A stretch of 64,000 nucleotides of DNA from Candidatus Poribacteria bacterium (GCA_965205025.1 CBDBFU010000012.1:96001-160000), one strand, 5' to 3'. Numbered from the stretch's first letter, positions 37,245 through 55,780 are shown. Program-made: numbers and translations. Notes: generated by a model from the letters alone, not told the origin.

Positions 37245-38243
37245 GTGAATACTAACGATAAACAATCCATAAAGAAAGCAGATATGCATGTCGGTGTTCA
37301 AGGTATTGGAACTTCAAAGAAAGAATTAGAATTTCTGGTGCGGCACGGGGTTACACATATGGATGCATCAGTCAGAGGAACTGAACCAGAAACACTGATA
37401 GAACACAAGGCTGAAGCAGAGGCAGCAGGTGTCAGTCTTGAGATGATTCACATTGGATTGCCAAGAAGCATTACACTCGCACAAGATCCACAGCGAGACA
37501 AGGACCTTGATGGAGTATGCACCACTATAGAAAATGCTGCAAAAGCAGGTTTACGAGGTTTAAACTATAATTTCTGTATCCTAAATCATCAACGAACCGA
37601 GAGTACAATAGGACGGGGTGGTTCCAGTTATAGTACATTTGACCTGTCAAAATACGATAACGATACTTTATCCGAGGCTGGCGAAGTAAGCCGTGCGGAA
37701 GCATTTGACAGGATAGGTTATTTTCTTGAAAGAGTAATACCTGTTGCTGAAGAAAACAATATCCAAATGGCATGTCATCCTAATGATCCACCTGCACCAG
37801 TATTACGCGGTGTGGAAAGATGGAATTACCCCATATTTGACGGATTAAAACGGTACAGTGAGATAGTGGATAGTCCTTATAACGGTTTTAACTTCTGCTG
37901 TGGTGTTGTTTCGGAAGGATTAGACGATCCCGGTACAGAATTGTATGAAATCATAGAGTATTTCGGTAAACGTAAAAGGATATTCAATATCCATTTTCGG
38001 AATATTAAGGGAGGATTACATAATTTCCAGGAGGTATGGCCAGATGAGGGAGATGTTGATATGTTTCGAGTTGCAAAGACCTTGCATGATGTAGAATATC
38101 CTTACATGTTGATGCCTGACCATGCTCCATCACATCCAGATGATAAATCACCTGAAGGTGTTTCTGGTCGTGTTCGTCAAGCATGGGCATACCAATTTGG
38201 ATATATAATTGCATTGATTCAAGCAGTTAATTCCATGAATTGA
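37245..38243 (+). CDS. Mannonate dehydratase (UxuA)-like protein
   Basis: YNF, FLERVIPVAEE..I.MACHPNDPP, SPYNG.NFC.G, IHFRNI.G, E...DEGDVDM, MPDH.P. GTG start follows AGGAG. Confidence 0.85.
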   Translation: MNTNDKQSIKKADMHVGVQGIGTSKKELEFLVRHGVTHMDASVRGTEPETLIEHKAEAEAAGVSLEMIHIGLPRSITLAQDPQRDKDLDGVCTTIENAAKAGLRGLNYNFCILNHQRTESTIGRGGSSYSTFDLSKYDNDTLSEAGEVSRAEAFDRIGYFLERVIPVAEENNIQMACHPNDPPAPVLRGVERWNYPIFDGLKRYSEIVDSPYNGFNFCCGVVSEGLDDPGTELYEIIEYFGKRKRIFNIHFRNIKGGLHNFQEVWPDEGDVDMFRVAKTLHDVEYPYMLMPDHAPSHPDDKSPEGVSGRVRQAWAYQFGYIIALIQAVNSMN

Positions 38244-38371
38244 TTTTCTGATGCATCTGAACTTCAGATCTCTCCGATTGGTGTACCGATGGGTGCACCC
38301 GCTGTATGGTGTGAAATTGTAGATTGAGAAGTCCTTAGATATACTCAATAAAACTAAACAAGGAGATAAAT

Positions 38372-39652
38372 ATGGCAAAGTCACCAAACATTGTTTTTAT
38401 TCTTGCTGACGATCACGGTTATGGTGATATCTCAGCACATAATGGACCCTCAATTCAAACACCACATATTGATAGGATCGCAGAAGACGGTATACGACTT
38501 ACCCAATTCTATGCAAACTCCTCTGTCTGTTCACCAAGTCGTGCATCGCTCATGACGGGTCGCTATCCGGATAGAGTTGGTGTTCCAGGTGTTATACGCA
38601 CACATCCAGAAAACAATTGGGGATATTTTCGACAGGATGCTATCACACTCCCATCTATATTAAAAGAGAAAGATTACAAGACATCCCTAATTGGTAAGTG
38701 GCATCTCGGACTTGAAGATGAAAATCACCCATGTAAAAGAGGATTTGATTATTTTCACGGCTTTCTCGGTGATATGATGGATGACTATTACACGCATCTT
38801 CGCCATCAGAATAACTATATGCGTCGTGATTTTGAAACAATTGACCCAAGAGGACACGCTACCGATCTATTCTCGGATTGGAGTGTTGAGTTTATCCAAG
38901 AACAATCACAATCCACACAACCCTTCTTTCTATATCTTGCTTATAATGCACCGCACACCCCGATCCAACCACCGAATGATTGGGTTGATAGAGTGAAGGA
39001 TCGTGAACCAGATATTTCAGAACAACGGGCAAAATATATAGCACTTGTTGAGCACATGGATGCTGGTATTGGACGGGTTCTTGATTCACTTGAAAAAACC
39101 AATCAACTCTCCAATACTCTTGTCATATATACTTCTGACAACGGAGGTCAAATGGGGGTTGGGGCACATAACGGTCCACTTCGAGGTCAGAAGGGTGAAA
39201 TGTATGAAGGCGGTATACGTGTACCTACCTGTGTCATGTGGGAAGGACATATTCCTGAAGGTTATGTATCAAATCAAGTGGGTATGATAATGGATTTTTA
39301 TCCTACACTCTGTGAAATTACGGGTATACCTATAAACCATGAAATTGAGGGACAGTCAATTTTGAAAACATTGCAAGGCGAAAAACAGGATTTATCCGAA
39401 CGTCTACTCTACTGGATACGAAGAGAGGGAGGACAACAGTTCTTAGGAGATTGCCAACATGCTGTTAGACAGGGGGACATAAAACTGCTACATAACAGAC
39501 CTTTTGAATCCCTTGAACTTTATGACTTATCAAACGATCCGATGGAAGCTACCGATACTGCCAAAACGAATACTGATCTTTTTAAAGAGATGGGGAATCT
39601 TTTCCAGCAAGAGACACAGAAATCAGGGGGCATTCCTTGGCAAAAAGCATAA
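38372..39652 (+). CDS. Sulfatase (arylsulfatase A-like)
   Basis: PNIVFILADD.GYGD, CSPSRASLMTGRY, GKWHLG, YNAPHTP, TSDNGG. Confidence 0.95.
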   Translation: MAKSPNIVFILADDHGYGDISAHNGPSIQTPHIDRIAEDGIRLTQFYANSSVCSPSRASLMTGRYPDRVGVPGVIRTHPENNWGYFRQDAITLPSILKEKDYKTSLIGKWHLGLEDENHPCKRGFDYFHGFLGDMMDDYYTHLRHQNNYMRRDFETIDPRGHATDLFSDWSVEFIQEQSQSTQPFFLYLAYNAPHTPIQPPNDWVDRVKDREPDISEQRAKYIALVEHMDAGIGRVLDSLEKTNQLSNTLVIYTSDNGGQMGVGAHNGPLRGQKGEMYEGGIRVPTCVMWEGHIPEGYVSNQVGMIMDFYPTLCEITGIPINHEIEGQSILKTLQGEKQDLSERLLYWIRREGGQQFLGDCQHAVRQGDIKLLHNRPFESLELYDLSNDPMEATDTAKTNTDLFKEMGNLFQQETQKSGGIPWQKA

Positions 39653-39845
39653 TTAATTTCTCAATTTAAAGGTTTTAAATGTGAGCCTATTTCAAATATT
39701 TATTCTCGTTCCAGGTTAAATGAGGTAGAATAAAAAGGATGCATCTCTCATCAGAAATCTATCCTTAGAAATTACTATCTTTTGGATATAAAATGACTCT
39801 TTAATGGTGGTGTATACAATGTATACATTCGTTATTTCGTTAACA

Positions 39846-39874
39846 TTGACATGCCGTAAAATCCGTTGTATAAT
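39846..39874 (+). promoter_or_regulatory. Consensus sigma70 promoter of the grpE-hsp70-J-like operon
   Basis: TTGACA-N17-TATAAT exact match. Confidence 0.75.
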
Positions 39875-39938
39875 CAAACAAAAACAACTTGAATGTATAA
39901 TAGTCATTCCTACATCATAGGTATGAGAGAATTCAGTT

Positions 39939-40655
39939 TTGAGCAGTGAAATGAATAACGATCTTGATGCAAAATTAAAAAAAATCTTGGATAGTGAAAC
40001 AAACTTAGATACGGATAAACCTGATGACACAGTAGATACTGTTGGAGATACCCCAATGGAGGACATGGAATTACATCAGATAAATACACTTACTGAGATT
40101 AACCAGTCTTTGACGGTATTACTCGAATTATTTGAAAAACACATATCTGGAAATCAGAATCAAGTCCAGATGTTTGATAAAATGTATGCCGAAATGAAGG
40201 ACTATAAAGAGAGTTTTCTACTTGAAGTACTTCATAAACCGGTTATCCATAACTTAATTCAACTCTACGATAGTTTTGTATCACTTGAATCTCAGCTTAC
40301 TAACCTTATTGATGAGAATAATGATAACACACTATTAAATGAGTTGGGGCAATATAGTAGTAATTTACAGAATTTTCGTTTTGAACTTGAAGAAGTTTTA
40401 TACCGCATGGATGTAACACCCTATAAGGATTCACCAGATACATTGGATAGGCAGTTACACAAGACACGGAAAGTCATATCTACTGACGATCCAAATTTGG
40501 ATCAGAAAGTAGCAGAAGTGCATAAAATTGGATTCTATTGGCGTGAGAAAGTATTTCGTCCGGAAGATGTAACCATTTATCGTTATACGGCCTCCACAGA
40601 AAAATCTGAACATCGTAATACTAAACATTCTTCAGATCAGCAAAGGGGAGATTAA
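39939..40655 (+). CDS. GrpE-like nucleotide exchange factor
   Basis: Long N-terminal helix, LIQLYD, then LD..LH...V.....D..VAEV.K.GF.W..KV.RPEDV.IY (GrpE beta head). The stop abuts the hsp70 ATG. Confidence 0.8.
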   Translation: MSSEMNNDLDAKLKKILDSETNLDTDKPDDTVDTVGDTPMEDMELHQINTLTEINQSLTVLLELFEKHISGNQNQVQMFDKMYAEMKDYKESFLLEVLHKPVIHNLIQLYDSFVSLESQLTNLIDENNDNTLLNELGQYSSNLQNFRFELEEVLYRMDVTPYKDSPDTLDRQLHKTRKVISTDDPNLDQKVAEVHKIGFYWREKVFRPEDVTIYRYTASTEKSEHRNTKHSSDQQRGD

Positions 40656-42251
40656 ATGGGTAAAGTTGTCGGAATAGATTTAGGTACGACATTTTCTGTG
40701 ATAGCACATATAAATGAGCATGGACAACCTGAAATTATCCCCAATTTGGAAAGTGACCGAATCACACCATCGGTCGTAATGTTTGAAGACAATCTTGTAA
40801 CTGTTGGGAAAATAGCTAAGCAGAATGCCAGAGCTGTTCCTGAACAGATTGTTGAGTTTATCAAAAGGGAGATGGGTAAATCAAGAACGAATTTCTTCCG
40901 TACATTCGATGAAAAAGACTATTCCCCTGAAGAACTATCTGCGCTCATTTTGACGAAACTGAAACAGGATGCAGAAATCTATCTGAATGAAGAGGTAACT
41001 GATGCTGTAATCACTGTACCCGCGTATTTTCACGACGCAGAAAGGGAAGCCACCCGAAATGCAGGTAAAATTGCAGGTTTTAATGTGCTTCAAGTCTTGA
41101 ACGAACCGACCGCAGCTGCACTCGCTTATGGAATCGATCAACTGGGTAATAACCAAAATGTATTTGTATTCGACCTTGGTGGTGGTACATTTGATGTGAC
41201 AATTATGCAGGTCTCAGAAGCTGAAATACAAATGTTAGCAACAAATGGTGACCATAGGTTAGGAGGTAAAGATTGGGACGACAAAATCATTACTTATGTT
41301 GCTGAGATGTTTGAGATAGAACATGGAGAGAATCCTCTGGATGATCTACATACATATCAAGACCTTCAACTGGATGCAATTGGAGCCAAAGAATCCTTAT
41401 CTCAACGACAAAGAGCATTAATTGTATGTGGATATAATGGGAAAACAACTCGTGTCGAATTAATGCGCGAGAAATTTGAAGAACTTACGGCAGATCTACT
41501 TGAGAGATGTCGAACTTTGTGTGAATTAGTATTATCAGAGGCAGAAATGGCTTGGACTGATATTGATAAGATTTTATTGGTTGGCGGGTCGACACGGATG
41601 CCTATGGTACAAGAAATGATACGGACAATTAGCGATAAAGAGATTAATCCACATGAAGTTAATCCTGATGAAGTCGTCGCATTAGGCGCGGCTATCCAAG
41701 GAACTCTACGTCAAATCACTGATGATACTGTTGAAACACCGGAAATGCCTGAAGCTGTTATTGAACGGTTTATTGGACCGGATGGTGTGCCAAAAGTCAC
41801 TGTAACTGACGGTGCTACACATAATCTCGGTCTTGTTGTCCTCAATTCACAACGCGATTATATTATCCATGTTATGATACCAAAAATGACTGCTGTACCG
41901 TGTGAAATTGCTGATCAATTCTTGACTGTAGATGAGAACCAACCAACTGTACTAATTGAGGTGGTGCAAGGACTTGAACAGGATCAGATTAAAAACCAAA
42001 TCCCATTTTTTGATGAATATAAGTTGGGAGAATGCACGCTTGAGTTACCTAACGGATTGCCACAAGGATCTCCAATTGAGGTAAATTATAAATATAATTT
42101 AGACCAAAATCTTGAGGTAACAGCAAAATCATTGACAGATGACGGTCCTACTGCAGTTTTTGATATCTTTTCAATAATTGATAGACCAACACTTAATGAA
42201 GAAGAAGTTTCCCAAGCACAAACAGATCTGCAAGAACTTACAGTTGAATAA
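40656..42251 (+). CDS. Hsp70/DnaK-family paralog lacking most of the alpha-helical lid
   Basis: GIDLGTT.S, TVPAYF, NEPTAAALAYG, DLGGGTFDV, LGG.DWD, LVGGSTRMP, NPDEVVALGAA. Only 531 aa long. Confidence 0.95.
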   Translation: MGKVVGIDLGTTFSVIAHINEHGQPEIIPNLESDRITPSVVMFEDNLVTVGKIAKQNARAVPEQIVEFIKREMGKSRTNFFRTFDEKDYSPEELSALILTKLKQDAEIYLNEEVTDAVITVPAYFHDAEREATRNAGKIAGFNVLQVLNEPTAAALAYGIDQLGNNQNVFVFDLGGGTFDVTIMQVSEAEIQMLATNGDHRLGGKDWDDKIITYVAEMFEIEHGENPLDDLHTYQDLQLDAIGAKESLSQRQRALIVCGYNGKTTRVELMREKFEELTADLLERCRTLCELVLSEAEMAWTDIDKILLVGGSTRMPMVQEMIRTISDKEINPHEVNPDEVVALGAAIQGTLRQITDDTVETPEMPEAVIERFIGPDGVPKVTVTDGATHNLGLVVLNSQRDYIIHVMIPKMTAVPCEIADQFLTVDENQPTVLIEVVQGLEQDQIKNQIPFFDEYKLGECTLELPNGLPQGSPIEVNYKYNLDQNLEVTAKSLTDDGPTAVFDIFSIIDRPTLNEEEVSQAQTDLQELTVE

Positions 42252-42327
42252 ATTCCTTCACCAAATTACATTTTCTTAGATAATATCATTAGTATATCTT
42301 ACCTTAGTTAACCACAGGAAATTACGA

Positions 42328-43704
42328 ATGTCTGATCGAGATGAATTTATAGCCTTTGTAACAGATTTTAAAGTTGTCTCACTTACTATTTCGGACGAAC
42401 AACGTAAAGGTCTTTTACGTAGAGCAGTACATCAACACGGTCTTACTGTAGAAGAAGCATACAGAATATTAGATAAATCGGGACTTGTAATTGGAGAACA
42501 ACAGGTAGATTTTTTTCAAGTATTAGGTATACCCTTTGAAGAGATTAAAACTAAAACCGAATCGGAGATTACAGGATGTGTTGAGTCAACCCACAAGAGA
42601 CTATATAGAGAATCCCTGAATTCGGGTGGTCGTCCACGGCCAGATGGTAGGTCAGAAGAACAGTGGCGAAGATTATTAAATCAAGCACGTGATGTCCTTA
42701 TTGATCCCATTAAGAGGCAAGGACATATTGATGAACTAAATACTTATGATGATGAAGAGTTTAATGAGGATATATCAATTAAGCCAACCACTTCTATAAG
42801 CAATTCATCATTTAATGTTGAGGAAAGGGTTATACCAGCACACAAAAAACTTGTATATTCTGTTGTATTTTCACCTGATGGCACATGTGTTGCCAGTGGG
42901 AGTGCTGACAAATCAATATGTATCTGGGATATTCAGGCTGAAAAGCAGAAACATATTCTTAACGGTCATCATGATACAGTAACATCTGTTAGGTATTCCC
43001 CAGACGGTAAAACCATAGCAAGCGGGAGTTTTGACGGAACAGTATGTTTATGGAATGCTAAATCTGGAGAGTTGAAAAAACGTTTAACAGAACAAAAAGA
43101 TAAAATTAGTTCCCTTGCTTATTCACCTGATGGAAAAACAATTGCAAGTGGGAGTTATAATGGAACTATTCAATTATACAATGCTGAGACAGGAGAACCT
43201 AAAATCCTCCTCAAAGGACATAAGAATTGGGTTAGTTCAGTTGTGTATTCACCTGATGGAAAAACAGTTGCATGTGCAAGTTATGATGGGAATGTATATT
43301 TATGGAATACTGAATCAGGCGTAAATATGCATGTCCTAACAGGTCATAAATTTAGTGTTATCGCAGTAACTTATTCACCTAATTCTGATACAATCATTAG
43401 TATTGATCTACAAGGAACAATTCTGGCATGGAATGCTATTTCTGGAAAACAAAAGAAACTCTCAACGGGGTTCATGTCCTGGGTTAGTTCAGTAGTTTAT
43501 TCCCCAGATGCAACGAATCTAACATGTGGTAGTTTTCATGGATCAATCACTTTATGGAATACAGATACATGGGAGGAAGTAAGAACTATTACAGGGCATA
43601 CCTCAACTGTAAAAGCACTATCCTACTCTCCAGATGGAAGGATTCTGGCAAGCTGCGGTGGAGACGGTAATGTACGAATTTGGAGTTCATCATTATACGA
43701 ATAA
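42328..43704 (+). CDS. J-domain-like module fused to a 7-bladed WD40 beta-propeller
   Basis: Shared N-terminal module (DFFQVLG...GGRPRPDGRSEEQW..LLNQARD.L.DP.KR), then GH..V.SV.YSPDG..IASGS.D repeats. Confidence 0.85.
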   Translation: MSDRDEFIAFVTDFKVVSLTISDEQRKGLLRRAVHQHGLTVEEAYRILDKSGLVIGEQQVDFFQVLGIPFEEIKTKTESEITGCVESTHKRLYRESLNSGGRPRPDGRSEEQWRRLLNQARDVLIDPIKRQGHIDELNTYDDEEFNEDISIKPTTSISNSSFNVEERVIPAHKKLVYSVVFSPDGTCVASGSADKSICIWDIQAEKQKHILNGHHDTVTSVRYSPDGKTIASGSFDGTVCLWNAKSGELKKRLTEQKDKISSLAYSPDGKTIASGSYNGTIQLYNAETGEPKILLKGHKNWVSSVVYSPDGKTVACASYDGNVYLWNTESGVNMHVLTGHKFSVIAVTYSPNSDTIISIDLQGTILAWNAISGKQKKLSTGFMSWVSSVVYSPDATNLTCGSFHGSITLWNTDTWEEVRTITGHTSTVKALSYSPDGRILASCGGDGNVRIWSSSLYE

Positions 43705-43788
43705 TACCTATTCAAGCTGCCGATCATTAATGACAGAATACTACAACTGAATTATTCTTGTTCATAGAATTTCTAATAGGTTTAATTA

Positions 43789-45030
43789 ATGTCCCAACGC
43801 GATGAATTCTTTGCATTTATTAATACTCTCAAAGATGCATCACCTACGATTACTGATGAACAACGAAAAGGCTTTCTCAGACTTGCAGTTGAAAAATATG
43901 GTTTAACTGTTGATGAAGCAACATCTATATTTAATGCATCGGGTATAATAATTGGGGAAATAGTTGATCTACTTGAAATCTTTGGATTAACTATCACAGA
44001 GATTAAGAGATATAATCAATCTGAAATTGTCGATCGCGTTGAGTCAATCCACAGTAAACTATATAGTGAATCTTTAAAGTCCGGTGGTCGTCCGCGTCCA
44101 GATGGTAGGTCAGAAGAACAGTGGCGAAGATTATTAAATCAAGCACGAGACACACTAACTGACTCAAAGAAACGGCACGAATATCTTACCACACTCCAAA
44201 TTAAAGAACCCTCCTTTGATATAGCATCAGGAAGCACAAGTCTTGAGGATATGTCACTTATTCATAAAGGTGAATTTGAAATGGGTAGCAATGATGACGA
44301 GGCTTTTGATGATGAACATCCGGTTCATACCGTTTTTCTTGACGAATTCTATATTGACCAATATCCTGTAACCAATGCACAATACAAGGCATTCCTTGAT
44401 GCAAGACCACAGTGGAGTAGACATGAAATTCCAAAAGAGTATTGTGATGTTGACTATCTAAAGCATTGGCGTTGGGATAGTTTTCCGAAAGGAGAAGCAG
44501 ATTATCCTGTTGTCAATGTAAGTTGGTATGCTGCTATGGCTTATGCTCAATGGAGAGGCAAACGTCTTCCAACTGAAGCTGAATGGGAAAAAGCTGCACG
44601 AGGTGATCTAATTGGCAATAAATATCCATACGGTAATTCAGTAGATCCCACTCAAGCGAATTATGACTGGAATGAGGGAAATACCACACCCGTTGGCAAA
44701 TATCCTTCAAATGGATATGAACTCTATGACATGTGCGGTAATGTTTGGGAATGGTGCCTTGATAAATATGAGAAATATTATTATAGAAACTCACCGACTC
44801 GTAACCCTATTGCTGGTGAAGATACTATTCACCAGTTGAATAGCAACTACTTAGAGATTGAATCTAACCGAGTATTACGGGGTGGTTCATGGCGTATACC
44901 TGCCTTATTAGTAAGAACAGCAAAACGTAATGCTGAATCACCATGGTTTTCACTGAATGTAATTGGATTTCGATGTGTATATCAGGTCTTACTTAAGGAT
45001 ATGTCTCCTTTACCTCCTTCCGTTATATGA
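43789..45030 (+). CDS. J-domain-like module + FGE/SUMF1 (CLec-fold) domain, paralog 1
   Basis: Shared N module, F.MGS..E.P.H.V, PVTNAQY, RLPTEAEWEKAARG, GNVWEW, RGGSW, GFRC. Confidence 0.9.
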   Translation: MSQRDEFFAFINTLKDASPTITDEQRKGFLRLAVEKYGLTVDEATSIFNASGIIIGEIVDLLEIFGLTITEIKRYNQSEIVDRVESIHSKLYSESLKSGGRPRPDGRSEEQWRRLLNQARDTLTDSKKRHEYLTTLQIKEPSFDIASGSTSLEDMSLIHKGEFEMGSNDDEAFDDEHPVHTVFLDEFYIDQYPVTNAQYKAFLDARPQWSRHEIPKEYCDVDYLKHWRWDSFPKGEADYPVVNVSWYAAMAYAQWRGKRLPTEAEWEKAARGDLIGNKYPYGNSVDPTQANYDWNEGNTTPVGKYPSNGYELYDMCGNVWEWCLDKYEKYYYRNSPTRNPIAGEDTIHQLNSNYLEIESNRVLRGGSWRIPALLVRTAKRNAESPWFSLNVIGFRCVYQVLLKDMSPLPPSVI

Positions 45031-45061
45031 ACTATCTTAACTTCTATATCAAAATTAGACT

Positions 45062-46447
45062 ATGCTAAAACGTAATGAGTATATAGACTTTATTAATCAA
45101 TTTAGAACTGTATCTCCAACTATCACAGATGAACAAAGGATTGGTCTTCTGCGACGAGGTGTTCAACAACATGGTCTATCAATTTCTGAGGCAGAGAAAA
45201 TAATTCTATCATCAGGATTAATTATCGGTGAACAGATAAATTATTTCGATATATTCGGTTTATCCATAGAAGATTTACAGAATAAAAACGAGGAGTTAAT
45301 TACAGCAGAAGTTGATACGATACACAGAAATCTATATAACGCTTCCTTAAAAGCAGGAGGTCGTATACGATCAGATGGCAGGACAGAAGAACAGTGGCGG
45401 ATCATATTAAATGAAGCACGCGATACTCTCAAGAATGTTGAAAAACGAAAATCTCATATTGAAATGCTACAATCCGATGTTCTACCTCCGATTGAAATCC
45501 TATTTGAAGATTCTCCTCTACAAGAAACTGACACAACACAAGAAACAATTCAAACACAACCAACCGAACAGTCAAGTGTGTTGCCATCTGTAAAAGTACT
45601 TCCTGAAGATGAATCTATACAAGAAACTGACACCCTTGAAGAATCTAATTTAACACAACCCGTAATAGAAGATGGTATGGCACTCATTCCTGCCGGAGAA
45701 TTTCAAATGGGGAGTGATGACATTGAGGCATACAATGACGAAAAACCTGTACATACTGTATACATAGATACATTCTTTATTGATCAATATCCTGTCACGA
45801 ATGTAGAATATCAAGAGTTTATTGATACCAATCCTGAATGGCGTAAACCCAAAAAGTGGTATGATAATACTGAAATTATTGCCGGTATTCACAAGAAATA
45901 TCATGACGGTGATTACCTAAAGACTTGGAAAAGAAACAATTTTCCAAAAAATGAAGATCATCATCCTGTAACTTGGGTGAGTTGGTATGCAGCCATGGCT
46001 TACGCACAGTGGAAAGGTAAAAGACTACCAACGGAAGCTGAATGGGAAAAAGCTGCACGAGGTGGTTTGACAGGACAGAAATATCCATGGGGAAATACCA
46101 TAAGCCTCAATCATCTAAATTACGATCTATATATCAGTAATACTACAGAAGTAGGTCAATACCCTGAAAATGGTTATGGTATTTATGATATGGCGGGGAA
46201 CGTATTTGAATGGTGCATAGATTTATGGGATGAAAACTTCTATACTAATTCTCCATACAATAATCCTGTCGCTGATGGATATTTAGCAGATATATTAGCT
46301 GATTTCACAAGCGCAATTACACCGAGAGTTGTGCGGGGTGGATCTTCTGTAAGTACTCCGAGAAACACACGTGTTTCATATCGACATAGAAATACTCCTA
46401 AACTGACATGTTTTAGTATTGGATTCCGTTGTGTAAGATCTAAATAA
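45062..46447 (+). CDS. J-domain-like module + FGE/SUMF1 domain, paralog 2
   Basis: Same architecture, with an acidic T/E/Q linker (QETDT twice). Confidence 0.9.
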   Translation: MLKRNEYIDFINQFRTVSPTITDEQRIGLLRRGVQQHGLSISEAEKIILSSGLIIGEQINYFDIFGLSIEDLQNKNEELITAEVDTIHRNLYNASLKAGGRIRSDGRTEEQWRIILNEARDTLKNVEKRKSHIEMLQSDVLPPIEILFEDSPLQETDTTQETIQTQPTEQSSVLPSVKVLPEDESIQETDTLEESNLTQPVIEDGMALIPAGEFQMGSDDIEAYNDEKPVHTVYIDTFFIDQYPVTNVEYQEFIDTNPEWRKPKKWYDNTEIIAGIHKKYHDGDYLKTWKRNNFPKNEDHHPVTWVSWYAAMAYAQWKGKRLPTEAEWEKAARGGLTGQKYPWGNTISLNHLNYDLYISNTTEVGQYPENGYGIYDMAGNVFEWCIDLWDENFYTNSPYNNPVADGYLADILADFTSAITPRVVRGGSSVSTPRNTRVSYRHRNTPKLTCFSIGFRCVRSK

Positions 46448-46500
46448 ACTACATTTTTATCAAATTTTTACTAATTTTTCATATATAAATTATTCTATCT

Positions 46501-47721
46501 ATGGCTGAAAGCAAAGAATTCATAGCATTTGTTAATAGATTAAAGACACTGTCACCGACCATAACCGAAGAGCAGCGTATTGGTCTTCTACGTCAAGGTA
46601 TGCAGGAATATAACCTCACCTCAGATGAAGCGGAAAATATTCTGAAAACATCAGGATTAATTGTTGGTGAACAAGATAATTATTTTGATGTCTTAGGAAT
46701 CTCAATTGAAGAATTTGAAGAACTTAGTGAAGCAGATATTATTGCGTATGTAGAATCCATCCACGACAAACTTTACAGAGCATCTTTGAATGCAGGAGGT
46801 CGGCCAAGGTCTGATGGTAGGACAGAAGAAGAGTGGCGGACACTACTAAATCAAGCACGAGATACATTAATAGATCCTGATATACGACGATTACACAATT
46901 CAACATTACAACAAACAGAAAATTCCTTAGATGATGGAATAACACATCTAAGTTCTGAAAATATGGTGTTAATCCCTGAAGGAGAATTTCAGATGGGATG
47001 TGATGATTATCAATCTGATAAGAGTGAGAAACCTGTCCATACTGTTTATGTTGATGCATTCTATATAGACTCTTTTCCGGTAACGAATCTACAGTACAAA
47101 TTATTTCTGGATGCGAACCCTCAGTGGAAATCTCCTAAAATAATTGATATTTATAGGATGCGAAAATATCGAGATACAGACTATTTGATGACTTGGGATA
47201 GGAACAAAGTTCCAACAGGAAAGGAAGAACATCCTGTAACTTGGGTGAGTTGGTATGCAGCTATGGCTTATGCTCAATGGTTAGGTAAAAGATTGCCAAC
47301 AGAAGCAGAATGGGAAAAAGCAGCACGTGGTGGCTTAGAAGAGAAAAAATATCCATGGGGTAATTCGATTGATGATTCCTATGCAAATTTTGGTATAAAC
47401 ATCGGTGAGACAACCCCAATTGGTAATTATCCTGCTAACAATTATGAAGTATACGATATGGTAGGGAATGTATCTGAATGGTGTTTAGATAAGTGGGATG
47501 AAAAATTCTATAGTTATTCACCACATATTAACCCAATTGCAGGTGGAAGTACTGAAAGGATTATAGAGACACATTCAAAATTAAGAGAGGAACGTGTAAT
47601 CAGAGGGGGTTCATGGCATACTGACCTTGAAGACCTACGAATATCCTACAGAACAGGATTAGCACCTTCAAAAACAGAAAGTTTTATAGGATTTCGTTGT
47701 GTGAAACCTATTAACCAGTAA
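46501..47721 (+). CDS. J-domain-like module + FGE/SUMF1 domain, paralog 3
   Basis: Same architecture. Confidence 0.9.
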   Translation: MAESKEFIAFVNRLKTLSPTITEEQRIGLLRQGMQEYNLTSDEAENILKTSGLIVGEQDNYFDVLGISIEEFEELSEADIIAYVESIHDKLYRASLNAGGRPRSDGRTEEEWRTLLNQARDTLIDPDIRRLHNSTLQQTENSLDDGITHLSSENMVLIPEGEFQMGCDDYQSDKSEKPVHTVYVDAFYIDSFPVTNLQYKLFLDANPQWKSPKIIDIYRMRKYRDTDYLMTWDRNKVPTGKEEHPVTWVSWYAAMAYAQWLGKRLPTEAEWEKAARGGLEEKKYPWGNSIDDSYANFGINIGETTPIGNYPANNYEVYDMVGNVSEWCLDKWDEKFYSYSPHINPIAGGSTERIIETHSKLREERVIRGGSWHTDLEDLRISYRTGLAPSKTESFIGFRCVKPINQ

Positions 47722-47763
47722 ACCAATTATTTCTCTTGTTAAAGACCTAATTGAGGATCAAGA

Positions 47764-49053
47764 ATGCGTGAATATGAAGAATTTATCTCTGTTATCAATA
47801 CACTCAAAGTACTATCACCAATAATAACTGAAGCGCAACGTATTGGTCTTCTGCGACAAGGTGTGCAGGAATATGGTCTCACTACAGATGAAGCGGAAAA
47901 TATTCTGAAAACATCAGGATTAATTGTTGGTGAACAAGATAATTATTTTGATGTTTTAGGAATCTCAATTGAAGAACTGGAAAATCTCAGTGAAGCAGAT
48001 GTCGACGCACATGTTGAATCTGTCCACGACAAACTTTACCGAACATCTTTGAATGCAGGAGGTCGTCCGCGGTCTGATGGTAGAACAGAAGTAGAGTGGC
48101 GAAACCTTTTAAATCAAGCAAAAGATACAATAACAGATCCCTTAAAAAGAAGTGAATATATTTACATTCTACAACAGGATAGAATAAAGGATATACCTAC
48201 TGAAACATCACAGGAATTGGAATCATCTGAGGCAAACACAATACCTCATGCATTAAGTAGTACATTTATACAGGATGGTATTGAGGTGCCTGATGATATG
48301 GTATATATACCAGCAGGAGAATTCCAAATGGGGAGTGAACATGCAGATGCAGAGGAGGATGAACAACCTATTCACACAGTTTTTGTTAATGCATTTCTTA
48401 TGGATAAATATCCTGTGACAAATAGGAAATTTAGAGAATTTCTGAATACTAATCCTGAGTGGCGGAAACCTGATGATATAATTAATCATATAAGATGGAA
48501 TTATCATGACGGTTCATATTTGAAGGATTGGCAGATGAATATGTATCCACCTGGGAAAGGTGATCATCCAGTGACACAGGTGAGTTGGTATGCTGCGATG
48601 GCGTATGCAGAATCTGTAGGTAAGCGTTTACCGACTGAAGCGGAATGGGAAAGAGCAGCACGCGGTGGCTTGGATGGTAAACACTATTCATGGGGTAATG
48701 TTGAAGATTTTGCTAATGCAGATGAGTATTTAAATGCTGAAGATAATTTGCCAATCGGCCTTACACCTGCCAATAATTATGGACTTTATGACATGTGTGG
48801 CAATGTATGGGAATGGTGTCTTGATGCATATAATGAGGATTTCTATAATGATACACCACAGAATAACCCATTTTATGGACCTAACAGCATAGAATGGGTA
48901 ATAGAACATTTTAGACGTATAACAATCGAACGTGTATTACGCGGAGGTCCTTGGGGTTTTGAAACTATAGGTGCACGAGTATCACAACGACTCAAAAGTG
49001 CCCCAACCGATACTTTACCTACTTACAGTTTTCGTTGTATAAAATATATTTGA
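47764..49053 (+). CDS. J-domain-like module + FGE/SUMF1 domain, paralog 4
   Basis: Same architecture. Confidence 0.9.
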   Translation: MREYEEFISVINTLKVLSPIITEAQRIGLLRQGVQEYGLTTDEAENILKTSGLIVGEQDNYFDVLGISIEELENLSEADVDAHVESVHDKLYRTSLNAGGRPRSDGRTEVEWRNLLNQAKDTITDPLKRSEYIYILQQDRIKDIPTETSQELESSEANTIPHALSSTFIQDGIEVPDDMVYIPAGEFQMGSEHADAEEDEQPIHTVFVNAFLMDKYPVTNRKFREFLNTNPEWRKPDDIINHIRWNYHDGSYLKDWQMNMYPPGKGDHPVTQVSWYAAMAYAESVGKRLPTEAEWERAARGGLDGKHYSWGNVEDFANADEYLNAEDNLPIGLTPANNYGLYDMCGNVWEWCLDAYNEDFYNDTPQNNPFYGPNSIEWVIEHFRRITIERVLRGGPWGFETIGARVSQRLKSAPTDTLPTYSFRCIKYI

Positions 49054-49117
49054 TAGGTATGGTCTTTTTGATAGAATAATTTCATAGAATATTGAAATAT
49101 AAATAGACTTACTAAAC

Positions 49118-50407
49118 ATGGCAAAACGTGAAGAGTTCATTCAGCTTATCAACACTTTTAAAACGGTGTCAGACACAATAACAGACAATCAAAGACGTGG
49201 TCTGTTGCAACAGGCTGTACAGATCTACGATCTCTCTATTGAAGAAGGTATAGAGATATTGGATTCATTAGGAATAGTTGTCGGCGATGAGATAAATTAT
49301 TTTGAGATATTAGGACTATCCCTTGAGGACATACAAGACAAGGATGACCACTCGGTTACTGATATTGTTAAAATAGCACATGATGACTTGTATAAAGTCT
49401 CCTTAACTGCTGGAGGACGGGTCAGATCAGATGGAAGGACTGAAGAACAGTGGCGAATACTACTGAACCAAGCGCGGAATATTCTGGGTGATAAAGAAAA
49501 AAGAAACGAATACATATCAACCCTTCTTCAAGAAGAATCTGAAGAATTTACAACTCCGAATACACCTACTATTCCGGGTACCGAACCTAATTCTATACAG
49601 ACGAGTGAAATTGTATCTGAACTGACCTCTCATATAATAATAGATCCTGACGATATTGAAATCCCGACTGAAATGGTATTGATCCCTTCAGGAGAATTTA
49701 TGATGGGATCTCATAGTGAAGAAATAAATGGTAGTGATTTATCATTACATAGTGTGTATGTAAATGGATACCTAATTGATAAATATCCTGTAACTAATTC
49801 TGAATTCCGTATTTTTCTCACAGAGAACGAACAATGGCAGAAAAACAACATACCCAATGAATTTCACAATGGTAAATACCTTAGTTCTTGGAACGGGAAT
49901 ATCTATCCAAGAAATAAAGACAATGATCCGGTTGTCGACGTAAGTTGGTATGCTGCCATGGCTTATGCTCAATGGATAGAGAAACGACTTCCAACAGATA
50001 TTGAATGGGAAAAAGCTGCACGTGGAGGGTTAACTGAAAAAACGTATCCCTGGGGTGATGATATTACTAACGACCTGGCGAATTACGGAATGATTGTTGG
50101 GAATACAACCCCTGTTGGCACCTATCCTCCAAATGAGTATGGTGCGTATGATATGGTTGGCAATGTGTGGGAATGGTGCCTTAATCATTATGAACATATT
50201 GAAGCATTTAGTAAACCAAGTATATCTGTTGAACAGATTGGTGATATCTTAGATTCCTACTTAGAAGTCGAAAGCAATCGTGTGTTACGTGGAGGGTCTT
50301 GGGCAAGTAGTGAACGAGCTCTTAATGTTGCATATAGAGGTAGTGCTGCCCCTGATTATACATATTACAGCTACGGGTTTCGATGTGTTAAGGATATTCA
50401 TGGGTAA
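49118..50407 (+). CDS. J-domain-like module + FGE/SUMF1 domain, paralog 5
   Basis: Same architecture. Confidence 0.9.
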   Translation: MAKREEFIQLINTFKTVSDTITDNQRRGLLQQAVQIYDLSIEEGIEILDSLGIVVGDEINYFEILGLSLEDIQDKDDHSVTDIVKIAHDDLYKVSLTAGGRVRSDGRTEEQWRILLNQARNILGDKEKRNEYISTLLQEESEEFTTPNTPTIPGTEPNSIQTSEIVSELTSHIIIDPDDIEIPTEMVLIPSGEFMMGSHSEEINGSDLSLHSVYVNGYLIDKYPVTNSEFRIFLTENEQWQKNNIPNEFHNGKYLSSWNGNIYPRNKDNDPVVDVSWYAAMAYAQWIEKRLPTDIEWEKAARGGLTEKTYPWGDDITNDLANYGMIVGNTTPVGTYPPNEYGAYDMVGNVWEWCLNHYEHIEAFSKPSISVEQIGDILDSYLEVESNRVLRGGSWASSERALNVAYRGSAAPDYTYYSYGFRCVKDIHG

Positions 50408-50467
50408 AATATCTTCAACTCTAATGTACATCTAATTTTCAGAGTTCATCTTTTTGGAACTGTATTA

Positions 50468-51845
50468 ATGGCAAAACGAGAAGAATTTATAGATGCAATC
50501 AATTTGTTTAGATCTGCCTCACAGTCCATTTCGGTAGAACAACGGATAGGACTTTTACAACAAGCTGTACAAGAGTATGGACTATCAATAGAAGAAGCAG
50601 AGGGGATAATCAAAGAAACAGGATTAAATGTCGGTGGTGCTATTAATTACTTTAGAGTCTTAGGTTTGTCAAATCACGAATTTGAAAATCTGAACGAAAC
50701 CACTATTACATCAATTATAGATGACGCACATAAACAACATTATACAGAATCATTAAGGGCAGGTGGCCTTCCTCGTCCTGATGGGAGAACCCAAGAACAG
50801 TGGAGAAATATCTTAAATCACGCACGCGATACTTTAATTGATCCACATAAACGCGAAGAATATCTATCACAATTATTGAGTGAAGAAGATTCATCTGATA
50901 GTCTCATTAATGATGTGTCCAACAATAATACCACTGATACGGAAATCTATAATCAGAATCATAACCAGACAGTCTCAATTGATAATAAAGCACAATTAAA
51001 TACATGCACCTTCGATTGTAAAAAATAAAAAAGTATTTACCCATCATGAATCACCTGCAAATATGGTACAAATCCCTGCTGGTGACTTCAGAATGGGTAG
51101 TAATAATGAAAAAGTTAGTAATAGAGAAAAACCTGCACATGTCGTGTATATTGACGAGTTTTTTATAGACACTAATTTAGTTACCAATGCAGAATATAAA
51201 GAGTTTGTAGATGCCAATCCACAATGGACAAAACCAACAAAATGGTTTCACTTAGAGAAAAAGATGAAATCTTATATACCTGAGAAATACCATGATGGTG
51301 ATTATCTAAAACATTGGAATGAGAATACATATCCTGATGAGAAAGCAGAACATCCTGTGACATGGGTGAGCTGGTATGCCGCAATGGCGTATGCTGAATG
51401 GGTGGCTAAACGTCTCCCAACAGAGGCAGAATGGGAAAAAGCTGCACGCGGTGGAATAACTGGACAGAATTATCCTTGGGGAGAATCAATTGATTATACT
51501 AAGGCTAATTATAATAGCTATATTGGTGAAACAACTTCTGTCGGTCAGTATCCTGCAAACGGATATGGAATTCATGATATGATAGGAAATGTCTGGGAAT
51601 GGTGTCTTGACGAGTATCAGGAAAATTACTATGCAAGTTCAGAACGCAAGAACCCAATTTGTGGTCCAAATACGGTTGAATCAATAGAATATAGTGATAT
51701 AGATAATAGACATGCACGGGTAATGCGAGGAGGTTCTTGGCTGGATGCCTCTCAATTCGTCCGTTCTGCATCCCGTTACAGGAACACACCTACACGTACA
51801 CTCGCAAGAATTGGGTTTCGTTGTGTCAAGTCTGCAACATCATAA
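50468..51845 (+). pseudogene. J-domain-like module + FGE/SUMF1 domain, paralog 6, split by a +1 frameshift in the linker (ORFs 50468-51028 and 51063-51845)
   Basis: The downstream frame is open from 51000. Deleting one A between 50998 and 51025 fuses the two ORFs. Confidence 0.85.
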
Positions 51846-51907
51846 TCCCGATAACTTCTTCATTGCAAATTTAGTTACACCTACATGTTTAATTACTGGT
51901 GGTACGT

Positions 51908-53299
51908 ATGTCAAATCGTGATGAGTTTATTGCTGTCGTAAATACACTCAAAACACTCTCTAATACAATTACAGATGAACAGAATAGAAGTCTATTACAG
52001 CAGGCAGTCCACGATCATGGTCTCTCAGTAGAAGACGCCTTGGAGATAATCGATTCATTAGGGATAATTGTTGGGGAAAAGATAAACTACTTAGAGATCT
52101 TAGGGTTTTCTATTGAAGATTTAAGTTCACAAGATGAATCTAACATTACTAAAATGCTTGAAATTGCCCATAAAAAATACTACTCTGAATCATTACAGTC
52201 GGGTGGGTTACCACGACAGGATGGGAGAACTCAAGAACAGTGGCGTACAATTCTAAATCAAGCCTATGATACATTGAAAGATCCAATAAAACGCAAGGAA
52301 CATATTGAAACCGTACAAACTGAGTCATCTCATGAGGAGAACACATCAACTATAGTAACCGAAATATCTGAACCTAAAGATACCTCATTACAAGTTGCAG
52401 TTCCAGAAGAAATGGTCTTAATTCCATCTGGGGATTTTCAGATGGGTAATAGTAATGAAAATGCAAATATACGCGAAACACCGGTACATATTGTCAATAC
52501 TGATGCATTTTATATTGACAAATATCCAATAACAAATGAACAATATAAAGCGTTTATAGATGCAAACCCATTATGGCGGAAACCATCTGAAGGATTGTGG
52601 TTATATCTTCAAAAATGGTATGAAAAAGGGAACGTTCGATTTCGATATAACTACATATATGATAAATATCATGATGGAGTGTATCTGAGACATTGGAGAC
52701 ATAATAGGTTCCCTCTTGAAACAGCTAATCATCCTGTTACCCATGTAAGTTGGTATGCTGCAATGGCGTATGCACAATGGGTTGGCAAACGTCTGCCAAC
52801 AGAAGCAGAATGGGAGAAAGCTGCACGGGGAGGGATAAATGGTCAGAAATATCCTTGGGGTGATTTAATGAATTCCAACATGGCAAATTGTAATGAGGAT
52901 GCAGATAAAACCACACCTATAGGAAAGTATCCTGCAAATAATTTCGGTGTTTTTGATATGGTTGGAAATATATGGGAGTGGTGCATTGATGAATATGTAA
53001 TGGATTTTTATACATCCTCTACATCTCTGAATCCTATCGCAGGCGTGGACTCAAAGGAGGACTTGGACAATTTCATTCTCAATTTTAGAGACGTAGATAG
53101 TGATCGTGTTTTGCGAGGTGGTACATCCTTTATTTCATCTGAACCTATCCATACTGCCGCACGTTGGGGTGGAACACCTATTCTTACTGAACATATTGCT
53201 TCCTATTCAACTAAGTATTTAGATACATTTTCAAGGCCAATCGCAGCAAACATTGGCTTCAGATGTGTATGGGATACAAACGTAAAAACGAATTCTTAA
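51908..53299 (+). CDS. J-domain-like module + FGE/SUMF1 domain, paralog 7
   Basis: Same architecture. Start set at MSNRDEF by comparison with the paralogs. Two long insertions in the variable loops. Confidence 0.9.
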   Translation: MSNRDEFIAVVNTLKTLSNTITDEQNRSLLQQAVHDHGLSVEDALEIIDSLGIIVGEKINYLEILGFSIEDLSSQDESNITKMLEIAHKKYYSESLQSGGLPRQDGRTQEQWRTILNQAYDTLKDPIKRKEHIETVQTESSHEENTSTIVTEISEPKDTSLQVAVPEEMVLIPSGDFQMGNSNENANIRETPVHIVNTDAFYIDKYPITNEQYKAFIDANPLWRKPSEGLWLYLQKWYEKGNVRFRYNYIYDKYHDGVYLRHWRHNRFPLETANHPVTHVSWYAAMAYAQWVGKRLPTEAEWEKAARGGINGQKYPWGDLMNSNMANCNEDADKTTPIGKYPANNFGVFDMVGNIWEWCIDEYVMDFYTSSTSLNPIAGVDSKEDLDNFILNFRDVDSDRVLRGGTSFISSEPIHTAARWGGTPILTEHIASYSTKYLDTFSRPIAANIGFRCVWDTNVKTNS

Positions 53300-53326
53300 T
53301 TCTTGTTAAATCTAATTTATTAAACA

Positions 53327-55663
53327 ATGAATTCATATCCAAAAGAGAGATTGATTATGAAAAACAAAAATAGTTACATATTATGGTATAACAAACCAGC
53401 ACAAGAGTGGACAGATGCCCTACCCGTTGGGAATGGACGACTTGGGGCAATGGTGTTTGGGGGAGTAGAACAGGAACGGATCCAACTTAATGAAGAGAGT
53501 CTTTGGGAAGGATGTTTTCAGGATACAAATAATCCTAAGGCACTGCAAGCACTTCCAATTGTCCAACAATTGTTGTTTGAAGACAAAAATGATGAAGCCA
53601 CAACACTTGCTGGTGAAACGATGCTGGGTGTTCCACATCGGATAAAATCTTATCAGTCTTTAGGCGATATTATTATTGATTTTACTAATCATAGTGAAAT
53701 TACAGAATATCACCGGGAACTGGATTTAGATACAGGTATAGCAAAGACAACCTATCAAGTCGGTAATGATAATATCAATAGAGAAGTCTTCGCAACTGCT
53801 GTCGATGATATCATCGTTATCCGTATAGAATCCGATTCAGCCAATGCTGTTAGTTTTGATGTTACAATGACACGAGAACAGGATGCCTCGGTTGCATGCA
53901 TATCTGACAAAATCCTTAGACTTGATGGAGAATGTAGTGATGGTGGTCTACGTTTTTCTGCATATCTGAAGGCAAATGTTGATGATGGAAAAATAGAATC
54001 GAATGAAGATAAAATTTCTATTCGTTCTGCAAGTAGTGTAACATTGCTACTGTCTGGTGCAACGAGTTATATTAATCAGAAAGATGCAACGGGTAATCCA
54101 CATGAATTGTGTGAAGGTCATCTGTCATCAGTAGAAAACAAATCTTATGACAAATTACGTTCTGACCACATACAGGAACATCAATCTCTATTTCAAAGAG
54201 TAGACATAAACCTCGGTTCAAGCGATGCGGATAATCTACCTACAGATGAACGTCTAACAAAGGTAAAGGAAGGTGACTCTGACCCAGGGCTTGTTTCACT
54301 ATATTTTCAGTTTGGACGTTATCTTTTAATGGGGAGTTCAAGACCCGGATGTCTCCCAGCCAACCTGCAGGGGGTTTGGAACCATCACATGAAAGCCCCA
54401 TGGAACAGCGATTACCACACCAATATTAATCTACAAATGAATTACTGGGTTCCAGAAGTATGCAATCTCGCTGAATGTCATAAGCCGTTATTTGATTATA
54501 TGGATACACTCGTTGAACCTGGAAGTGAGACAGCAAAACGCCATTATGGTGCAGGGGGTTGGGTAGTTCATCACTTATCTGATATATGGGGATTTACAAC
54601 ACCAGCGGATGGTATTTGGGGGATATCACCTGTAGGTGCTGCATGGTTGAGCGAACATGTATGGGAACATTACCTGTTCGGTGGTGATGAGAAATTTCTT
54701 AGAGAACAAGGTTATCCACTCATGAAAGGTGCCGCACGTTTTATGCTTGATTTTCTAATTGAAGCACCAGAAGGTACACCTTTCGCTGGAAAACTTGTAA
54801 CGAATCCATCCCATTCACCTGAAAACAGTTTTCAAAAAGCTGATGGTACACGTTCACTATTCACTTATGCCGCAACAATTGACCTTGAGATTATACATGA
54901 ACTCTTCACAAATTGCATAGACTGTCTTGATGTACTCGGTATTGACGCGGATTTCCGAGAAGAATTAGTTTCATCTCTGGATCGGTTGGCACCACTACAG
55001 ATTAGTGAAAAAACAGGTAGACTGCAGGAGTGGATATATGACTATGATGAACCGGAACCAGGACATAGACATATGTCACATATGTATGGTCTACATCCAA
55101 GTTGTCAAATAACACTACGTGGCACTCCTGAGTTGGCAGAGGCAGCACGAAAATCTTTGGAATATCGATTGCAACATGGTGGCGGACAAACAGGATGGAG
55201 TCGGGCATGGTTGGTAAATTTCTTAGCACGACTTGAAGACGCAGAAGAAGCGTATAACCATTTACATGCACTCCTTGCAAGGTGTACCTTAACAAACCTG
55301 TTTGATACCCATCCACCATTCCAGATTGACGGAAACTTTGGGGGAACAGCAGGAATTGCTGAGATGCTTATACAAAGTCATGACGGAGAGATTAACCTAC
55401 TCCCCGCACTGCCAAAAGAATGGAATACCGGTTATGTTAAAGGGTTGCGTGCACGCAGTGGGTTTGAAGTGGATATGGAATGGGAAAATGGTACTCTTAC
55501 TAAGTCGATAATTTCTTCTCAACTTGGTAGGGAATGTACTGTTAGAACAACGGAAACTGTTTCGGTGTCGTGTGATAATGAAAAAATTGAATCAATTCAA
55601 TCTAATTCAGTGACAACATTCAGTACAGAGATTGGAAAAACCTACATAATATCTACTACATAG
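53327..55663 (+). CDS. Glycoside hydrolase family 95 (alpha-1,2-L-fucosidase-like)
   Basis: [60 protein letters not shown]. Confidence 0.95.
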
Positions 55664-55702
55664 TGTTCAAACAAATACATCGGGAGCCTATCCTATTAAA
55701 AG

Positions 55703-55741
55703 CAATAGACTCTATCAATGGAACATTGACGGAGTCTATTG
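55703..55741. terminator. Hairpin, probable bidirectional terminator
   Basis: CAATAGACTCTATCAATG-gaa-CATTGACGGAGTCTATTG between convergent genes. Confidence 0.6.
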
Positions 55742-55780
55742 ATAATTCCAAGATTTATTTAGAAAATATTGTGATGACAA

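Follow-up and report, generated by a model that had tools for sequence, protein, structure and literature searches.

The operon analysed here lies at positions 39846-53299 of a 64,000-nucleotide stretch of Candidatus Poribacteria bacterium (GCA_965205025.1, CBDBFU010000012.1:96001-160000), which we call the window; coordinates are those of the window unless another contig or locus is named. It encodes a GrpE-like protein, a 531-aa Hsp70 (Hsp70-A) and, with short spacings, eight paralogous proteins that share an N-terminal module (the N module) and end in one WD40 and seven formylglycine-generating enzyme (FGE)-fold heads. There is good support for these genes forming a dedicated Hsp70 machine whose paralogs are adaptor-like. 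We further propose, with a probability of about 0.6, that the operon gives the Poribacteria, the sponge symbionts that carry it, a private Hsp70 cycle, and that its paralogs dock on Hsp70-A through a re-wired J fold.

The first-pass annotation of this region had regarded the paralogs as J-like, and the predicted fold of the N module agrees with it. The module is shared over ~140 residues (44-53% identity to paralog 1, 27 invariant columns), and no Pfam, NCBIfam or PADLOC model matches it in the window's proteins. An alignment of 104 modules, eight from the window and 96 from related loci with less than 80% mutual identity, was used to model residues 1-142 of paralog 4 with AlphaFold2 (pLDDT 90.6). 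In the model, residues 2-51 form a sub-domain of three helices, after which come further helices at residues 61-65, 69-73, 77-97, 109-124 and 126-141. Foldseek returned J domains as the ten best matches in the PDB, with probabilities of 0.96-1.00 and, lower in the list, TM-scores by target of at most 0.74; the E values of these matches are only 0.18-0.44, which fits a short domain. With VIA-align, which is independent of Foldseek, 17 of the top 19 places went to J or J-like domains, aligned over residues 58-142 and with Z scores of 5.8-8.4, values that alone can reflect common helical arrangements. Examples are 2dmx (Z 8.4, rmsd 5.1, 81 residues aligned) and HscB (1fpo, Z 7.6, rmsd 3.3, 70 aligned). 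Residues 1-57 gave weak, mixed three-helix matches only (Z up to 5.6).

Profile comparisons point the same way. Searching PDB sequences with the N-module profile gave HscB (E 0.031), Jac1 and DnaJ proteins (E 0.03-1.5) as best matches. When residues 56-140 were compared by hhalign with 30 canonical J domains drawn from 15 genomes of the phylum, the two families aligned over 64 columns with 93.3% probability (E 2.6e-7), as against 0.2% for the first sub-domain of the module, used as a control. Pfam DnaJ does not match the window's paralogs, and a distant family member matches it below the cut-off, at E 1.2e-4. The best scores of an ESM Atlas search with the N module (0.80) were at chance level. 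From the modelled fold and the profile alignments together, it is well supported that residues 58-140 are a J-domain homolog by fold and ancestry.

The N module has lost the HPD motif of J domains. HPD is present in none of the 104 modules and in none of 41 members of the wider family, versus all 30 canonical J domains. Its position corresponds in the hhalign alignment to G99-G100-R101, within an invariant or near-invariant A-G-G-R-P-R-x-D-G-R loop; HMMER alignment to HscB sets the equivalent position a few residues earlier, so that the equivalence is alignment-dependent. This loop is the most conserved part of the 104 modules, with Y92, S95, L96, G99, R103 and D105 invariant. The Hsp70 side has changed as well. 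In DnaK, D35 of the HPD contacts R167 and H33 contacts L391 of the linker, as described in PMC13012618. The R167 position is occupied in Hsp70-A by Q146, which is nearly invariant in its clade, and the ILLL linker of DnaK is replaced by VTVT (within KVTVTD, which the clade conserves), ~20 inserted residues lying just before it. Because the HPD is lost and the counterparts of R167 and L391 are replaced, both sides of the canonical J contact are changed, and for this reason 'J-like' denotes here fold and ancestry and not the canonical mechanism.

Hsp70-A (40656-42251, + strand; PF00012, 406 bits, profile positions 1-514 of 599) is a divergent protein that is 38% identical to the DnaK of the same genome. 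It has an actin-fold nucleotide-binding domain, its beta-sandwich substrate-binding domain aligns to that of DnaK, and since the protein stops at about DnaK residue 515, just after this domain, the helical lid is missing. In an alignment of 66 clade members that are 69-100% identical, K70, E150, D173 and T178 are invariant; taking these as the counterparts of the DnaK catalytic residues, ATPase competence is expected. Hsp70-A falls far short of the cut-off of every NCBIfam DnaK and HscA model, and it receives no specific NCBIfam name.

The GrpE-like gene (39939-40655, +) encodes 238 aa from a TTG, with an ATG at 39951. It scores 34.4 bits with Pfam GrpE (PF01025, cut-off 25.8) over profile positions 12-163 of 165, compared to 149.5 bits for the canonical GrpE of the genome, and no NCBIfam model matches it. 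Its TAA stop directly abuts the ATG of Hsp70-A, with AAGGGGAG just 5' of it, so the translational abutment (TAA-ATG) reported earlier is read directly in the sequence. The genome (33 contigs, 5.66 Mb, 95.5% complete) holds a separate housekeeping set: a canonical DnaK is encoded on contig C27 (891 bits), and the canonical GrpE lies beside a canonical DnaJ at C12:436xxx. Genome-wide there are only two PF00226 J domains, and N modules occur at the operon locus only. The earlier proposal of a self-contained Hsp70 module apart from the housekeeping DnaK, DnaJ and GrpE thus holds: the canonical dnaK and dnaJ are both found elsewhere in the genome, and the dnaK of the operon is not its only one.

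Hsp70-A and the N module were modelled as a complex with ESMFold2 in a single job, using our own alignments (66 rows for Hsp70-A, 104 for the module). The ipSAE of the pair was 0.71 (0.67, 0.75 and 0.71 in the individual runs), versus 0.00 for the best of three controls. This mark is reached by 58 of 80 solved complexes and by two of 110 mismatched pairs, counts that are only rough when own alignments are used. The runs share at least 61% of their contacts, and the pLDDT of the partners is at least 79. On the module, the modelled interface comprises residues 93, 96-104 and 106, that is, the invariant loop including the HPD-equivalent position. On Hsp70-A it comprises residues 63, 66-68, 80-83, 205, 209, 212-213, 216, 220, 226, 228-229, 231 and 234, 14 of these 19 being invariant or nearly so (at least 90%) in the clade, versus ~54% of all positions. 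Residues 205-234 correspond by alignment offset to about residues 226-255 of E. coli DnaK, and we take the two segments (63-83 and 205-234) to be in lobes IB and IIB of the nucleotide-binding domain (NBD). The model therefore suggests that the invariant loop would dock on NBD lobes IB/IIB and not on the IIA/linker site of canonical J domains. GrpE-type factors wedge lobes IB and IIB apart (PMC12987570).

The genes of the two partners are linked well beyond this genome. One narrow peptide pattern was searched in 185,579 species genomes and gave 37 loci, all in Poribacteria or in unlabelled metagenome-assembled genomes. The named relatives in databases are likewise all 'Candidatus Poribacteria', most database matches carrying no taxon. 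At 28 of the 37 loci an Hsp70 that is 72-97% identical to Hsp70-A is found directly upstream of one to nine N-module genes; a GrpE was shown by tblastn at 16. The loci occupy one fixed chromosomal site, with a sulfatase gene upstream in 23/37 and a GH95 gene downstream in 21/37. An ankyrin-repeat gene precedes the Hsp70 in nine of the 37, mostly replacing GrpE, as in a sister genus where a protein with seven ankyrin repeats stands in its place (L024:4625-5524, +); the locus L023 has both.

A survey of 176 Poribacteria genomes found N modules, at E up to 1e-3, in the same 61 genomes as members of the Hsp70-A clade (E up to 1e-150), the two lists being matched by eye. The system is present in 33 of 39 genomes of its own genus and in 22 of 65 of a second genus, with 1-13 modules per genome. 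In G107 and G104, two same-genus genomes of which one is a single contig, GH95 follows the sulfatase gene within ~150-275 bases and the whole cassette is absent. The order GrpE, Hsp70-A and J-like protein also occurs in divergent relatives that belong to other genera, to another family and to another class; these have HEAT or BACON-type heads and add upstream a Hsp70-vWA fusion that is absent from the window's genome. We observed such fusions (728-755 aa) upstream of GrpE and Hsp70-A at L088:14236-16422 (-) and L089:10625-12892 (-); the same architecture occurs in ~100 database clusters, one of which is labelled Myxococcota. The N-module family is small, since a profile search of 1.84 billion representatives gave 131 clusters only. 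In many of these relatives the N-terminus consists of the J-like half alone, and a cluster look-up of ten such proteins gave neither names nor taxa. A J fold, linkage of the N module to this Hsp70/GrpE clade and a dnaK elsewhere in the genome, on all of which the first-pass annotation depended, were each found, as were the copy-number variation and the alternative C-terminal domains for which it had suggested a survey.

The heads are attached to the N modules as follows, all on the + strand. Paralog 1 (42328-43704) joins the N module, recognised by alignment, to a WD40 propeller (222 bits). Paralogs 2 (43789-45030, 214 bits), 3 (45062-46447, 209.9 bits, with a long acidic linker), 4 (46501-47721, 209.7 bits, the copy used for fold and docking), 5 (47764-49053, 199.5 bits) and 6 (49118-50407, 207 bits) join it to a FGE-sulfatase domain. 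Paralog 8 (51899-53299, from GTG 51899 or ATG 51908) also carries a FGE-fold head; its C-terminal part is divergent and longer, and the match covers profile positions 3-195 only (196.7 bits). Across paralogs 2-6, which are intact, and paralog 8, PF03781 thus scores 197-214 bits. Paralog 7 is split into an N-module half (50468-51028), which aligns as N module and has no Pfam match, and a head half (51000-51845; frame open from 51000, first ATG at 51063) with a PF03781 match of 216.9 bits at C12:147057-147830. The best PDB matches of the head are solved FGEs (E 7e-32), and its fold is of the FGE/C-type-lectin kind.

The FGE-fold heads lack the catalytic cysteine pair of this enzyme. Both Cu-binding cysteines are missing from the head of paralog 4 when aligned to the FGE 6s07. 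Among 154 heads (seven from the window and 147 distinct ones from related loci), the 12 residues that follow the GGS motif are free of cysteine in 136 and include at least one in nine; another nine heads could not be parsed. Conservation is very high in the core of the head (residues 251-280 and 321-330 of paralog 4) and lowest in loops (171-180, 211-220, 291-300, 331-360 and 371-390). The genome has 22 matches to the FGE family and 47 to sulfatases, besides a single bona fide radical-SAM sulfatase maturase, anSME (524 bits). Nine of its 14 other FGE-family loci were parsed, and none has two cysteines in the segment and two have one. True FGE activity was considered and rejected, the cysteine pair being absent and the genome having a radical-SAM maturase. 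Diversification by a diversity-generating retroelement (DGR) was likewise rejected: there is no PF00078 reverse transcriptase in the 95.5%-complete genome, in which a template repeat was not searched for. Because the cysteine pair and a reverse transcriptase are absent, the FGE-fold heads are best read from their sequences as non-catalytic binding domains, and not as DGR targets.

Other heads occur in the wider family. A Pfam scan of 66 longer members found FGE (16), ankyrin (11), DnaJ (4), peptidoglycan-binding (3), WD40 (2) and HEAT (2) domains, and TPR heads are also present among family members. One of the 66 matches Pfam DnaJ at E 1.2e-121, which would suggest a chain of repeated J domains. 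Six stretches of a metagenome protein of 679 aa (P0209) match the N-module profile. At one locus (L084, G156:C4, ~12444-17276), a 1613-aa open frame starts with an N module that is followed by five FGE-fold domains in a row, as seen by tblastn.

The closest match of each window paralog in close relatives is its positional counterpart, and the duplications are therefore old. Pairwise dN/dS values (NG86, the window versus two relatives) were 0.05 for Hsp70, 0.06-0.08 for the flanking sulfatase, 0.19-0.35 for the GrpE-like gene and 0.17-0.32 for the adaptors, and no gene-wide positive selection was seen in this comparison. The adaptors are thus constrained genes, with faster evolution than Hsp70.

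Every long open reading frame (ORF) of 39846-53299 is on the + strand, and the array has 11 ORFs for ten genes, with paralog 7 split. A putative sigma-70-type promoter (39846-39874, +; TTGACA-17 nt-TATAAT), a consensus match only, is the sole 12/12 match within 39600-53700, where promoter-like sites of all grades show no excess (51 versus 57.4 in shuffled sequences); no convincing + strand terminator was found inside the array by a pattern scan. The earlier description of one promoter and ten co-oriented genes is in line with this. A 116-aa ORF on the opposite strand (39716-40066, -) overlaps the promoter and the GrpE start and is probably spurious. GrpE, HSP70, WD40 and FGE are the only Pfam domains on the operon ORFs. 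A crude hydropathy scan detected no transmembrane-like or signal-like segment, as had been stated for the paralogs before; the highest 19-residue Kyte-Doolittle mean (1.70) falls within the folded module.

The count of eight tandem paralogs, one WD40 and seven FGE, was confirmed, with the amendment that a frameshift splits paralog 7. Its two ORFs are in different frames that overlap as open frames at 51000-51028, with the N module at 50468-51028 and the head at 51063-51845. Its positional orthologs at the related loci L003 and L004 are single intact ORFs of 458 aa. In contigs from two related runs the base at 50999 is missing, which joins the two frames of paralog 7; the split form, with one base extra near 50999, is also carried by two near-identical runs. 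An A-run at 51020-51036 was rejected as the frameshift site, the contigs indicating ~50999.

The flanks at 33151-39652 and 53327-58975 are devoted to carbohydrate use and encode GH32, a UxuA-like TIM-barrel protein, a sulfatase, GH95, a LamG-fold protein and a sodium:solute symporter; KdsB and CTP synthase are likewise encoded in the flanking DNA. The upstream sulfatase is the best PF00884 match of the genome. A N6/N4 DNA methylase (PF01555, 154 bits) is encoded at 35003-35857 (-), 4 kb upstream of the operon. Judged from these annotations, the neighbourhood is one of carbohydrate and housekeeping genes, not a defence island.

We propose that each paralog would act as an adaptor, in which a non-catalytic head is carried on a flexible acidic linker from the helical N module, and that the GrpE-like protein would serve as the exchange factor of Hsp70-A. 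The invariant loop would dock the adaptor on NBD lobes IB/IIB of Hsp70-A, the region used by exchange factors; a target bound by the head would thereby be brought to Hsp70-A for holding, unfolding or disassembly; and GrpE would then reset the cycle. The docking, an effect on the ATPase, the delivery of clients and the identity of the ligands are all parts that we infer. 'Client-recruiting adaptor', the term of the first-pass annotation, would be the most natural reading of the paralogs.

Several points weigh against this proposal. Canonical J-type stimulation by the N module is unlikely because the HPD and the residues that read it are lost, and the alternative docking comes from one model, which may be drawn to conserved patches. 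Nine of the 37 loci have no Hsp70: two of these share DNA with other loci, two run off the end of the sequence, and at L016, L019, L029, L031 and L037 arrays or single genes stand with no Hsp70 within 5-10 kb, so that their adaptors would need to work in trans. In one genus an ankyrin-repeat gene takes the place of GrpE, and the exchange factor is therefore not an obligatory part. Finally, the surveyed genomes are kin, and the 61 co-occurrences overstate independence and are not 61 independent events.

Delivery of third-party clients by the heads is nevertheless the reading we prefer over cargo, invader sensing and help to sulfatases. The paralogs might themselves be clients or cargo, with the N module as a docking tag through which Hsp70-A holds, assembles, activates or hands over the heads; eukaryote-like proteins could, for example, be kept competent for export towards the sponge host. 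The heads found across the family (FGE, ankyrin, WD40, HEAT and TPR) are typical protein-interaction folds, an ankyrin protein is encoded in the operon of one genus, and the modelled dock has the look of a stable loop insertion away from the catalytic J site, all of which would suit cargo. However, the paralogs have no signal peptide or transmembrane segment, no secretion genes are found in the operon or its flanks, and a J domain joined to a targeting domain is the classic adaptor architecture of class C J-proteins; we consider cargo unlikely, at about one chance in a handful. Far less probable still is that the linkage is only historical, the J-like module no longer engaging any Hsp70 and the paralogs being simply lectin-fold or WD40 proteins beside a spare Hsp70. 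The lost HPD, the failure of Pfam DnaJ to match the window's paralogs and the frameshifted paralog would be expected from such a relic. Against it, no part of the 104 modules is better conserved than the loop that stands in place of the HPD, both partners occur in the same 61 of 176 genomes, the core is maintained in other genera, another family and another class, the cassette is lost in one piece and the docking model passes its controls.

The first-pass annotation had considered that such a repertoire fits biological conflict or targeted complex remodelling, and the conflict role found no direct support: no effector gene, no defence context and no viral copies were found. An anti-phage or anti-mobile-element sensor, with the Hsp70 as effector or switch in analogy to NTPase/vWA chaperone systems, is to us a doubtful reading. 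FGE-fold (FGS) heads and repeat heads of the WD40 and TPR type, here WD40, TPR and HEAT, are usual variable parts of such systems, and one theme described there joins HSP70, GrpE and a DnaJ-fused protein (PMC7159879). The Hsp70-vWA fusion in the same operon of deeper relatives, the copy number of 1-13 per genome with presence and absence inside a genus, an adaptor dN/dS 3-6 times that of Hsp70 and head variation that centres on loops, including the segment that is variable in DGR targets, could all be read in its favour. Yet the Pfam scan of the operon turned up no effector such as a nuclease, protease or pore, and PADLOC-DB 2.0 (library of 2023), run on eight operon proteins, gave only a weak partial Hsp70 match (PDC-M61B, E 9e-4) and a repeat-type WD40 match; on 66 family members PADLOC matched only ankyrin, HEAT and other models, which we take to be repeat-driven, and no Zorya model was among them. 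No copies lie on viral contigs, where 57 pattern matches included no relative, and the fixed site between sulfatase and GH95 (21-23 of 37 loci) is not that of a mobile island. Positional orthologs are stable with a gene-wide dN/dS below 0.4, and the genome has no reverse transcriptase and so no DGR. A wider recognition system, in which a germline repertoire of heads (lectin-fold, WD40, ankyrin and HEAT) captures foreign proteins of phage, plasmid or host origin, is a tentative idea of similar standing; the re-wired J fold would plug them into the exchange face of the lid-less Hsp70, and it is equally speculative that target capture would be coupled in this way to the nucleotide state of the chaperone. 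We find it improbable that the operon helps sulfatase biogenesis, with inactive heads binding the unfolded Cys/Ser-x-Pro-x-Arg motif and Hsp70 keeping sulfatases unfolded for the radical-SAM maturase. The sulfatase gene directly upstream in 23 of 37 loci, the 47 sulfatase matches alongside one anSME of 524 bits and the action of FGE on unfolded sulfatase peptides would fit such a helper, but WD40, ankyrin, HEAT and TPR heads do not, and the catalytic cysteine pair is absent from 136 of 154 heads. Moreover, no sulfatase adjoins the Hsp70/GrpE/J-like core in deep relatives, and genomes of the same genus that lack the cassette retain their sulfatase.

The operon presents a clean case, with all partners in one place, in which the HPD and the residues that read it are lost on both sides while the two partners have kept their strict linkage and their conservation. 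Should the modelled dock prove right, it would be a second way for a J fold to engage Hsp70 and would provide a naturally orthogonal Hsp70/adaptor pair; if the recognition reading were true, the docking mode would have no known counterpart among solved complexes. The expansion of FGE-fold and repeat proteins that sponge symbionts show may in part be due to such variable, non-enzymatic heads.

Like the DnaK-DnaJ-GrpE and HscA-HscB systems, the Poribacteria operon combines a Hsp70 and a GrpE-type factor with J-fold partners that have a specific binding domain; class C J-proteins also consist of a J domain and a targeting domain. It differs from these systems in that none of 145 modules has the HPD, the lid, R167 and the LLL linker are missing from Hsp70-A, the J fold comes after an additional sub-domain of three helices, partner paralogs number up to 13 in tandem and the modelled dock is on lobes IB/IIB. 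Tim16/Pam16 (2guz) shares with the N module a J fold without HPD (2guz_B, Z 6.1, rmsd 3.8, 60 residues aligned). Tim16 works by pairing with a true J protein, whereas the Poribacteria operon has no HPD-bearing partner and the loop that replaces the HPD is invariant. DjlB and DjlC, the partners of the specialised Hsp70 HscC, bear the HPD, so that the HPD-less partners here would argue against membership in the HscC-DjlB/DjlC group. BAG domains grip NBD lobes IB and IIB. The modelled contact on Hsp70-A (63-83 and 205-234) resembles that of BAG and of GrpE, the latter as described in PMC12987570, and differs in that a single loop of the J fold would form it.

Kaur, Burroughs, Iyer and Aravind (2020) described HSP70, GrpE and a DnaJ-fused protein in GTPase-centred GAP1-N2 systems, and FGS domains among the variable parts of NTP-dependent conflict systems (PMC7159879). 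The likeness lies in a chaperone NTPase with co-chaperones and variable FGS, WD40, TPR or HEAT parts, and in the Hsp70-vWA proteins of the relatives. As to differences, the Pfam scan of the Poribacteria operon found no GAP1 GTPase, FNIII protein, MoxR or peptidase, its J-type domain is fused to the variable head and lacks the HPD, and no conflict context was found. Lid-less DnaK-like domains that are 50% identical to DnaK are fused to EACC1-protease defence modules in a 2025 preprint (PMC12642450). These are also DnaK-derived proteins without lid helices in a non-housekeeping role; unlike them, Hsp70-A stands alone, is 38% identical to DnaK and has its own GrpE and J-like partners. DnaK-derived paralogs are called largely unexplored in reviews (PMC13580251), and a 2024 paper reports duplicated DnaK/GrpE pairs in myxobacteria (PMC11019930). 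A literature search, in which supplements that could list such neighbourhoods were left unopened, found no paper joining Poribacteria with this Hsp70/J-like system, and NCBIfam offers no specific names, in keeping with the first-pass view that this is not a named system. The operon is a new variant within the theme of Hsp70, J-protein and nucleotide exchange factor.

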